From IMG/VR virus record IMGVR_UViG_3300028965_000026: a DNA stretch of 26,162 bases. The stretch is one strand, 5' to 3'. This document shows, one piece after another, positions 2,812 to 3,109 of this stretch (its first letter is position 1; every line of letters starts with the position of its first letter). This DNA is from a virus. Its lineage: Duplodnaviria > Heunggongvirae > Uroviricota > Caudoviricetes. Under the pieces are notes generated by a model that worked only from the letters and a program-made list of their open reading frames with translations, ran no database searches and was not told the DNA's origin. A program made the translations under genes and the position numbers.

Positions 2812-2925
2812 ATGAAAGGTATTGAAGTGGAAACTCCCGCGAGCCTTGATTTGACAAGGGCTGCGGCCTTTGCAATTCGCCTTGTGGCGGTCGCTGTTCT
2901 GATTTGGGCTGTGCGTTGGTGGTGA
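2812..2925 (+). CDS. Hypothetical 37-aa single-pass membrane peptide
   Basis: ATG at 2812, product MKGIEVETPASLDLTRAAAFAIRLVAVAVLIWAVRWW with one C-terminal hydrophobic helix. Stop TGA at 2923-2925, one nucleotide before the ATG of the next gene. Below the six-frame track length cut-off. Confidence 0.35.
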   Translation: MKGIEVETPASLDLTRAAAFAIRLVAVAVLIWAVRWW

Positions 2926-2926
2926 T

Positions 2927-3109
2927 ATGACGCGAAAACACTGGACACACAGAATGCCGCGAACGGCGGCGAAATGGGCACTGGTAGCGATACTGGTGCC
3001 TTTTTTATTGGTGGGATGCGTCAGCCTGGATAAAGCGCGCCAGCTTTTCGATACTGCTTCTCAGGTCTGTGAAATTGTCGACGGTGTTCGGCAGTGTCTG
3101 CAGAACTGA
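2927..3109 (+). CDS. Small Cys-rich lipoprotein (lipobox LLVG-C); possible outer-membrane spanin analogue or exclusion lipoprotein
   Basis: 60 aa: basic N-terminus, hydrophobic core WALVAILVPFLLVG followed by Cys (signal peptidase II lipobox). The ~30-aa mature part has three Cys. Position directly downstream of the endolysin is typical of spanin genes. Confidence 0.5.
   Translation: MTRKHWTHRMPRTAAKWALVAILVPFLLVGCVSLDKARQLFDTASQVCEIVDGVRQCLQN

Follow-up and report, generated by a model that had tools for sequence, protein, structure and literature searches.

A small lipoprotein gene in the spanin position of a phiP27-like lysis cassette and its membrane micro-protein neighbour

In a survey of phage spanins, phage phiP27 was assigned a 'separated' two-component spanin with an outer-membrane component (o-spanin) at 20706-20861 and an inner-membrane component (i-spanin) at 20348-20542 (Kongari et al. 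2018, PMC6139136). This pair was the shortest in the survey, with 62 periplasmic residues where accepted pairs range from 62 to 300, and its o-spanin, the only member of its family, had 30 periplasmic residues and 83% predicted helix (PMC6139136). About 13-15% of phages of Gram-negative hosts lack a recognisable spanin (PMC6139136; bioRxiv 10.1101/515445), and the latter report describes gp28 of phage phiKT as a cationic antimicrobial peptide, or 'disruptin'. To our knowledge, gp28, which is not a lipoprotein, is the only spanin alternative tested so far. Here we analyse two small genes that close the lysis cassette in a 26,162-nucleotide stretch of caudoviricete DNA (IMG/VR record IMGVR_UViG_3300028965_000026; the whole stretch is called the window below). 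The upstream open reading frame (ORF1) encodes a predicted membrane micro-protein, and the downstream one (ORF2) encodes a small prolipoprotein which is the orthologue of the phiP27 o-spanin (95% amino acid identity). The ORF2 family is a clean and frequent case in which to ask how phages without a recognisable spanin get through the outer membrane (OM), as a single 60-codon gene that appears to alternate with Rz/Rz1 and that also occurs in Shiga-toxin phages (phiP27 with Stx2e, phiSTEC1575 with Stx2k), where lysis controls toxin release.

An earlier note on this locus had placed ORF1 and ORF2 at the tail of the lysis cassette, with ORF2 as a non-Pro-rich lipoprotein in the spanin position, and this description holds. 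The coordinates and lengths of the ORFs, the one transmembrane helix of ORF1, the lipobox, the three Cys and non-Pro-rich mature part of ORF2 and the 1-nt junction were all confirmed from the sequence. A six-frame scan of the 26-kb window also bore out that it contains no canonical Rz/Rz1 and no embedded Rz-like ORF; besides ORF2 there was no lipobox ORF, nor was there any ORF with an N-terminal transmembrane domain (TMD) followed by a periplasmic domain. The relationship between the two genes is read differently here. We favour, giving it an even chance, the reading that ORF1 and ORF2 are two independent, adjacent lysis-cassette modules, with ORF2 a stand-alone, o-spanin-derived OM lysis lipoprotein and ORF1 an independent inner-membrane (IM) accessory. 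Function is inferred here from position, conservation and exclusivity. A literature search for experimental work on ORF1 or ORF2 found none. While a lipoprotein of the ORF2 type in the spanin position was partly anticipated by the 2018 survey (PMC6139136), the present analysis adds evidence for the lack of an i-spanin, for alternation with Rz/Rz1, for an origin from LysC-type o-spanins and for a separate ORF1 module.

Position of ORF2 and its relation to Rz/Rz1

Viral contigs, genomes and phage records yielded 90 loci with ORF2 relatives, at least three of the confirmed loci being contributed by a scan of genome contigs, and we examined a span of ±4 kb around most of them. In all 90, ORF2 closed the series of co-oriented genes that make up the lysis cassette. 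The endolysin 5' of it belongs to the M15 or the GH108 family, three holin families accompany it (PF16931 with PF05449, or PF05106), and the phages concerned include phiP27-like, lambdoid Stx2k and Mu-like ones (GemA, Mor, Portal_Mu). In about 42% of the loci ORF2 begins 14 nt after the endolysin stop, and in other loci it overlaps the upstream gene by ATGA. A lambda- or SfV-type Rz/Rz1 was found within ±4 kb at none of the 90 ORF2 loci, and Rz and Rz1 were present in all 12 loci that carry ORF1 without ORF2. Yersinia prophages, for example, have a PF16931 holin, a PF05449 holin, a GH108 endolysin and ORF1, followed by a canonical 149-residue Rz with embedded Rz1. One of these Yersinia loci (L097) shares the GH108 endolysin and ORF1 module with a class C ORF2 locus (L014), and both cassettes contain the PF16931 and PF05449 holins. 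Nucleotide homology between the two could be detected through the endolysin and the ORF1 module and stopped 4 nt into the gene that follows. Given the absence of Rz/Rz1 at ORF2 loci together with this homology break, ORF2 and Rz/Rz1 therefore behave, as judged from these sequences, as alternative occupants of one position, which we call the spanin slot.

ORF2 was found in 354 of 5426 complete E. coli genomes, with up to eight copies in a single genome, which indicates many co-resident prophages with this cassette type within one genome. It occurs in Escherichia, Salmonella, Citrobacter, Cronobacter, Yersinia and Lelliottia with a constant length of 60 residues, and at least two isolated phages, phiP27 (Stx2e) and phiSTEC1575-Stx2k, carry it. 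In the class D loci, about 16% of ORF2 loci (L043, L047 and L060, around 3660-4000), two other small transmembrane ORFs upstream of ORF2 replace ORF1. One is a longer relative of ORF1 (phrog_1115, MRKYKLILLRLTMKNGLELK...), and the other has 44 residues and an N-terminal TMD (phrog_4906) and stops a few nucleotides short of the ORF2 ATG. Between classes, N- and C-terminal halves of the ORF1 relatives have been shuffled (e.g. P0169).

The same distribution bears on the suggestion, made in the earlier note, that the two genes make up a minimal two-component spanin of their own, in which ORF1 would be a very small i-spanin and ORF2 its o-spanin. In favour of this, ORF1 and ORF2 lie side by side at the spanin position with coupled translation (TGA-T-ATG), the lipoprotein ORF2 has periplasmic Cys, and the phiP27 locus was classed by Kongari et al. 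as a separated two-component spanin (PMC6139136). Nevertheless, 65 of the 90 ORF2 loci have no ORF1, nor does phiP27, and the prevalence of the two genes is unequal, with ORF1 in 863 of the 5426 complete E. coli genomes and ORF2 in 354. In sampled prophages of the enterohaemorrhagic E. coli (EHEC) type (e.g. O157:H7 EC4115, O111 11128) and of Yersinia, ORF1 lies between the endolysin and a canonical Rz, and the ORF1-Rz junction, CGTTGGTGGTGAtATG, is identical to the junction in the window, where the ORF1 stop (TGA 2923-2925) is followed by T 2926 and the ORF2 ATG at 2927. Because ORF1 is optional at ORF2 loci and the same junction precedes Rz, the tight coupling belongs, on this comparison, to the ORF1 module and the spanin slot and not to ORF1 with ORF2. 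The only hydrophobic helix of ORF1 is moreover C-terminal, with at most three residues after it and thus no periplasmic domain, so that ORF1 cannot, as predicted from its sequence, be an i-spanin; the combined periplasmic length would be 30 residues from ORF2 and about none from ORF1. The distribution thus appears largely to refute a dedicated pair, and we regard this explanation as scarcely credible.

Other candidates for an i-spanin partner were sought as well. A six-frame scan of the complete phiP27 genome returned no ORF with an N-terminal TMD and a periplasmic domain. ORFs in alternative frames that overlap the 3' end of the endolysin gene and the 5' end of ORF2 were considered as embedded i-spanins and rejected, as they have no TMD; the alternative frame over ORF2 itself is a Gly-rich stretch of 35 codons without a TMD and contains no Rz-like reading frame. 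The published phiP27 'i-spanin' (4235-4429 in our locus L001) is a TTG-initiated ORF which runs antisense to a 90-residue minus-strand gene of phrog_36812. The phrog_36812 protein has a 46%-identical homologue in cassette L038, where the plus-strand 'i-spanin' ORF is not preserved, and the segment is missing from the window and from most ORF2 loci. Since it lies antisense to a conserved gene, is not preserved in L038 and is missing from the window, the phiP27 'i-spanin' of Kongari et al. is probably spurious, and our analysis corrects the published annotation in this respect. In the RefSeq record of phiP27, the ORF2 orthologue is unannotated and an overlapping alternative frame, P27p32, is annotated in its place. 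Among the hallmarks of two-component spanins, ORF2 has a signal peptidase II (SPII) lipobox without Asp at +2, periplasmic Cys and a location in the lysis cassette; a type II i-spanin, an obligate co-inherited pair and a combined length sufficient to bridge IM and OM were not found. We conclude that the ORF2 family represents an orphan o-spanin-like lipoprotein.

The two genes and their products

Pairwise Nei-Gojobori comparisons gave ratios of nonsynonymous to synonymous substitution rates (dN/dS) of 0.02-0.04 for ORF1, where dS was 1.7-2.2 and synonymous sites were thus near saturation, and of 0.08-0.30 for ORF2. Because of these low ratios, both are, on the evidence of their coding sequences, genuine genes under purifying selection and not chance ORFs. 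In case of ORF2, both PGAP and Kongari et al. place the start at ATG 2954, yielding 51 residues. Codon 3 of the longer frame is nonetheless represented by four Arg codons (CGA/AGA/CGT/CGG) among 50 distinct alleles and codon 11 also varies synonymously, and this pattern supports ATG 2927 over ATG 2954 as the probable start.

The ORF2 lipobox is L28-V29-G30-C31, and the 30-residue mature part contains Cys at positions 31, 48 and 57 and no Pro. An alignment of 22 sequences (A1) shows all three Cys to be invariant and the lipobox residues to be almost so; in a more distant subfamily the Cys are spaced C-x9-C. The residue at +2 is V, A or T across the family, without the Asp associated with Lol avoidance. 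The C-terminus is polar (...RQCLQN) and there is no C-terminal TMD, unlike in unimolecular spanins of the T1 gp11 type, which combine an N-terminal lipoprotein signal with a C-terminal TMD in a single polypeptide. In a profile search of 1.84 billion cluster representatives only 23 ORF2 clusters were found, all of 54-71 residues if apparent fusions, frameshifts and truncations are set aside. They comprise two mature-peptide subfamilies, ...SLDKARQLFDTASQVCEIVDGVRQC... and ...LEKARNWFGVAADVCDTVNKIKDRC..., the second retaining the heptads and the Cys pattern; relatives with a differing signal peptide keep the mature domain as well. AlphaFold2 predicted a single helix over residues 12-59 at low to moderate confidence (pLDDT 67). 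The mature part is strongly amphipathic, with a hydrophobic moment of 0.5-0.6, and hydrophobic residues fall on mature positions 7, 10, 14, 17, 21, 24 and 28 in both subfamilies when read by eye. Counted from the acylated Cys, the heptad register agrees with that of Braun's lipoprotein (Lpp). Mimicry of Lpp was considered and not adopted, since the hhalign probability of 52% came mainly from the signal peptide and is a lead only. Searches of ORF1 and ORF2 against Pfam, NCBIfam, PADLOC and PDB sequences gave no relevant match, and ORF2 had no Pfam match at E ≤ 1.

The N-terminus of ORF2 (TRKHWTHRMPRTAAKW...LLVGC) resembles that of the SfV/SfII Rz1 family (SRSHWSHREPRKISKW...LLTGC), a family which falls in Pfam LysC (PF23793; 63.5 bits for SfV Rz1). 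Over the signal peptide, hhalign aligned ORF2 with the SfV Rz1 family at a probability of 96.8% (E 3e-10), pairwise BLASTP gave E 4e-8, and SfV Rz1 matched phrog_7528, the PHROG of ORF2, at E 4e-5. From these similarities, ORF2 appears to descend from an o-spanin of the SfV/P2-LysC type. Long Pro-rich relatives of ORF2, as an origin by truncation of an o-spanin might leave, were not found in the profile search of 1.84 billion representatives. ORF2 might also be what is left of an SfV/LysC-type Rz/Rz1 locus in decay, without a present function: it shares N-terminal homology with an o-spanin, linker and i-spanin are missing, and some copies carry lipobox or frameshift mutations. This is very improbable in view of the dN/dS values of ORF2, its invariant Cys and constant 60 residues across six genera, its presence in at least two isolated phages, and the heptad and Cys pattern of the second subfamily. 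A few database variants of ORF2 are without Cys31, their lipobox ending in GY, GG or GR. Other variants (proteins P0005, P0013 and P0146) include an internal duplication of QLFDTASQVC, an in-frame ORF1-ORF2 fusion of 89 residues and an ORF1 that reads through into the alternative frame. These natural ORF1/ORF2 variants suggest some decay in resident prophages.

In the enterobacterial group, conservation is higher in the ORF2 signal peptide, which has a long and basic n-region, than in the mature part, with A18-P25, L27, L28, G30 and C31 invariant. The DNA encoding it contains a terminator-like hairpin (Table 1) followed by TTTTTTATT. Hairpin nucleotides are nearly identical in the Lelliottia (61% amino acid identity) and Citrobacter orthologues, where the flanks have diverged. 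Across the alignment 97.6% of cells are paired with two compensatory pairs, L181 keeping the stem through two such pairs, and the Mu-like copy L183 is without the hairpin. The structure could act as an intrinsic terminator or an attenuator within the gene, and may at least partly explain why the signal peptide seems more conserved than the mature peptide.

Two further roles for ORF2 have to be weighed against its cassette context. The earlier note had considered a superinfection-exclusion lipoprotein of the Cor/Llp type. Such a receptor-masking OM lipoprotein (T5 Llp, phi80 Cor) would be made late and would protect progeny from debris. ORF2 would suit this role as a small OM lipoprotein of the late operon whose Cys could form a disulfide, as is established for Llp, and morons such as lambda bor likewise lie just 3' of spanins. 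On the other side, ORF2 has no match in Pfam, NCBIfam or PADLOC, it adjoins the endolysin gene, to which it is coupled or which it overlaps, and not receptor-binding or tail genes, and its mature part is half the size of Llp. The phages that carry ORF2 differ in their virion modules (contractile tail in phiP27, Portal_Mu in a Mu-like phage, lambdoid Stx2k), making a single receptor unlikely, and ORF2 and Rz/Rz1 exclude each other from the same slot. We therefore consider an exclusion function decidedly unlikely. It is quite improbable, too, that ORF2 regulates lysis timing or OM integrity rather than executing the OM step. It is a small resident of the lysis cassette, and its internal terminator-like hairpin could tune dosage. 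Known lysis regulators, by comparison, have holins or endolysins as their targets, in the IM or the periplasm, and the three holin and two endolysin families found alongside ORF2 speak against a specific target among them, while the exclusivity with spanins points to the OM step.

Compared by blastn with a locus in which ORF2 directly follows the endolysin (L006), the window shows homology up to 2675 and again from 2918, the sequence in between being the ORF1 module. Every ORF1 class has, in frame and 13 codons upstream, a conserved start that is either GTG, as at 2773 in the window, or ATG (L057 and class D), and GGAG is found at 2759-2762, 10 nt 5' of it. Comparison of the window with the EHEC and Yersinia copies shows five differences in the 13 extra codons, four of them synonymous and one a G/R replacement, and the phrog_4493 profile reaches 13 residues upstream of the 37-residue form. 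Through the extension, (G/R)KYK(R/L)FFLRLSI, the long form gains four basic N-terminal residues. The internal ATG 2812 is conserved in every ORF1 class as well. On this pattern, ORF1 is probably a 50-residue protein starting at GTG 2773, the 37-residue form, the only one in PGAP's annotation, being an internal-start isoform. It shows the features of a dual-start gene, namely two conserved in-frame starts and isoforms that differ in N-terminal positive charge. The 3' end of ORF1 (GTTGGTGGTGA) also serves as the ribosome-binding region of the slot gene, and these bases are also found before ORF2 in a Citrobacter locus without ORF1. The possibility that ORF1 is an Rz remnant was ruled out, as it coexists with an intact Rz. 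All in all, ORF1 is, by conservation and distribution, a separate, widespread and highly constrained dual-start micro-protein module that is independent of ORF2. The analysis thereby exposes an almost invariant protein of 37 or 50 residues, which EHEC prophages carry 5' of Rz in their lysis cassettes and which about 16% of complete E. coli genomes contain. A lysis-timing role, also raised in the earlier note, is conceivable for ORF1 given the conserved dual start.

At its 5' end the ORF1 module carries an intrinsic-terminator-like hairpin of its own, which separates the endolysin from the spanin-slot genes within the lysis operon. The EHEC and Yersinia copies keep this hairpin, in Yersinia with a compensatory change (CCCCGG/CCGGGG vs CCCCAG/CTGGGG). 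Read-through would presumably be achieved by Q-modified polymerase.

Setting of the cassette

The window comes from a lambdoid, phiP27-like E. coli prophage and covers its late region (Table 1). A 611-bp stretch of the locus was found to be identical in E. coli strain CEA224S, and phiP27 is 97% identical to the region across the aligned 62% of a 701-bp query. The order on the + strand is AraC-type regulator, tRNA-Thr, tRNA-Gly, three tandem terminator-like hairpins, PF16931 holin, PF05449 holin-family protein, M15 endolysin, ORF1 and ORF2, followed by a phrog_1935 gene, a K88-type fimbrial subunit gene and the terminase genes. Just 5' of the holin, where the window has the two tRNA genes and three hairpins, phiP27 has tRNA-Ile, tRNA-Arg and the stx2e genes. 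The fimbrial subunit gene stands alone, 3' of the lysis cassette and 5' of the terminase genes; neither a chaperone nor an usher is evident in its vicinity, and a terminator-like hairpin lies beyond it. An orphan fimbrial subunit within a prophage late region is unusual; both this gene and the AraC-type regulator fragment at the left end of the window look like morons.

Table 1. Features of the lysis cassette and its surroundings, in window coordinates
Feature	Position	Strand	Remarks
AraC-type regulator fragment	53-550		left end of window
tRNA-Thr(TGT) and tRNA-Gly(TCC)	931-1084		
Three tandem terminator-like hairpins	1448-1616		5' of holin
Holin, PF16931 (Phage_holin_8)	1642..2034	+	opens lysis cassette; Pfam E 1.3e-22; phrog_198 holin
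Second holin-family protein, PF05449 (Phage_holin_3_7)	2024..2299	+	Pfam E 1.2e-21; phrog_217
Soluble M15-family endolysin	2302..2679	+	PF13539 E 7.8e-12; phrog_465 endolysin E 3e-74
ORF1 module, 242 bp (terminator hairpin + ORF1)	2676..2917	+	insertion relative to commonest cassette type
Intrinsic-terminator-like hairpin + T-run	2687..2720	+	5' end of ORF1 module
ORF1 long form, 50 aa from GTG: MGKYKRFFLRLSIMKGIEVETPASLDLTRAAAFAIRLVAVAVLIWAVRWW	2773..2925	+	predicted tail-anchored membrane protein; phrog_4493
ORF1 short form, 37 aa	2812..2925	+	ATG 2812, TGA 2923-2925; also PGAP's CDS in identical E. coli locus; GAGG 9 nt upstream
ORF2, 60-aa prolipoprotein (phrog_7528)	2927..3109	+	starts at ATG
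Terminator-like hairpin (11 bp) + T-run	2976..3011	+	within ORF2 codons 17-28; dG -19 kcal/mol, z -3.7
ORF2 lipobox LVGC	3008-3019		signal peptide aa 1-30; predicted acylated Cys31 at 3017-3019
K88-type fimbrial subunit gene	4025-4795		PF02432, E 2e-58
Terminator-like hairpin	4823-4850		beyond fimbrial subunit gene

Proposed mode of action and comparison with known systems

In the mechanism that we propose for two independent modules, ORF2 would be made late, together with the holins and the endolysin; after lipidation at C31 it would be delivered to the OM, in its inner leaflet. Retention versus OM sorting of lipoproteins is governed by Asp at +2 (the Lol rule), and OM sorting is expected for ORF2 because it has no Asp there. 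ORF2 would oligomerise through the heptad of its helix and through disulfides formed by its two further Cys. After murein removal by the endolysin, with turgor pressing the inner against the outer membrane, ORF2 would destabilise or fuse the OM alone, acting as a tethered membrane-active peptide in place of the Rz/Rz1 complex. The ORF1 module inserts just 5' of whichever gene fills the spanin slot, and ORF1 may, with its translation coupled to that gene, modulate lysis at the IM in a holin/antiholin-like or Lcc6-like manner.

Several points weigh against this favoured reading. The 30-residue mature peptide is, at about 4.5 nm as a helix, too short to span an intact periplasm, and the bridging mechanism of Rz/Rz1 is therefore not applicable to it as such. 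The mature part shows no significant similarity to the C-terminal domain of SfV Rz1 (hhalign P 0.07); a by-eye alignment of VSLDKARQLFDTASQVCEIVDGVRQ with ASLDLNVSLLSALGQCNIDKAGIRS is in the register that hhalign returns at this P value, and the likeness is unproven. With a net charge of -1 to +2, the mature peptide is also not cationic, unlike phiKT gp28. We know of no direct precedent among phage lysis-cassette lipoproteins for solo action, and a distant partner of ORF2 could lie beyond ±4 kb at most loci, phiP27 excepted. Finally, lambda spanin mutants lyse when divalent cations are absent; a phage could therefore do without an OM-disruption gene, and ORF2 could have another purpose. The more far-reaching proposal that ORF2 alone suffices for the OM step, as a third solution beside spanins and the cationic disruptin, and that ORF1 is a widespread dual-start lysis regulator, is accordingly put forward as tentative and somewhat doubtful. 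If true, ORF2 would be a lipid-anchored, disulfide-linked amphipathic helix of 30 residues, derived from an o-spanin by loss of linker and i-spanin, and would act only when murein removal has let the two membranes touch.

It is also possible, albeit unlikely, that ORF2 is half of a membrane-bridging system whose IM half has gone unrecognised, be it the ORF2 precursor itself, a holin-family protein or small transmembrane ORFs. A precursor oriented N-in, C-out could pair its 30-residue domain homotypically with the mature OM form, and the two invariant periplasmic Cys and the heptad would fit such disulfide-locked pairing. The long, basic n-region and the higher conservation of the signal peptide in the enterobacterial group are in line with a function of the precursor, and in class D the 44-residue ORF with its N-terminal TMD (phrog_4906) stands directly 5' of ORF2. 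Two 30-residue domains (at most about 9 nm as helices) nevertheless fall short of the width of the periplasm, signal-peptide conservation is at least partly due to the conserved RNA hairpin, and distant relatives combine other signal peptides with the same mature domain. As to the other candidates, the same holins occur with canonical Rz/Rz1 too, and the 44-residue ORF is found in only about 16% of the loci. In a radical variant of solo action by ORF2, the conserved signal peptide would let the unprocessed precursor act as the IM half of a one-gene bridge.

The system closest to the favoured stand-alone ORF2 is the phiP27 pair itself, whose o-spanin entry is orthologous to ORF2 and differs in a 51-residue start that drops nine synonymously varying codons (PMC6139136). 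O-spanins of the SfV Rz1/P2 LysC type (PF23793, phrog_456) share with ORF2 the SPII lipobox, a basic n-region with R-x-H-W-x-H-R-x-P-R...K-W, periplasmic Cys and the position at the cassette end. They differ in that ORF2 lacks the Pro-rich linker of about 35 residues and has no PF23793 match, in that SfV Rz1 overlaps Rz/LysB whereas ORF2 does not, and in a mature part of 73 residues compared with 30. Lambda Rz/Rz1 (PF03245/PF06085) occupies a slot identical to that of ORF2 in homologous cassettes with the ORF1 module and its junction. It consists, however, of two embedded genes whose products span the periplasm, Rz having an N-terminal TMD and about 130 residues of coiled coils and Rz1 being Pro-rich, whereas ORF2 is a single gene with neither feature and a product too short for this. 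Like ORF2, phiKT gp28 is a small, single amphipathic helical protein proposed to replace spanins at the OM step (bioRxiv 10.1101/515445); it is described as cationic, whereas ORF2 is lipid-anchored and near neutral and does not qualify as a cationic peptide.

For ORF1, the closest parallels are the holin/antiholin pair S107/S105 of lambda, with two in-frame starts in a lysis-cassette membrane protein, and Lcc6 of LambdaSo, a 65-residue transmembrane protein required for lysis (bioRxiv 10.1101/2024.01.23.576932), which resembles ORF1 as a very small single-helix membrane protein inside a lysis cassette. Neither has sequence similarity to ORF1, which lies after the endolysin and not in the holin position.

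Colicin lysis or bacteriocin release proteins (BRPs; ColE1 Kil/Lys family) and entericidin B are made as precursors of 45-60 residues with an LxGC-type lipobox and yield mature lipopeptides of about 28-30 residues, so that they match ORF2 in size and lipobox only. BRPs are not homologous to ORF2, as there is no sequence similarity and ORF2 has no Pfam match at E ≤ 1, they lack the two extra Cys, they are not predicted to form amphipathic helices (hydrophobic moment 0.30 vs 0.53 for ORF2), and they belong to colicin operons and not to phage lysis cassettes. Colicin lysis proteins and entericidin B permeabilise the OM without an IM partner gene, and the BRP signal peptide is itself functional. 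They show that lipopeptides of the size of ORF2 can permeabilise the envelope partner-free.

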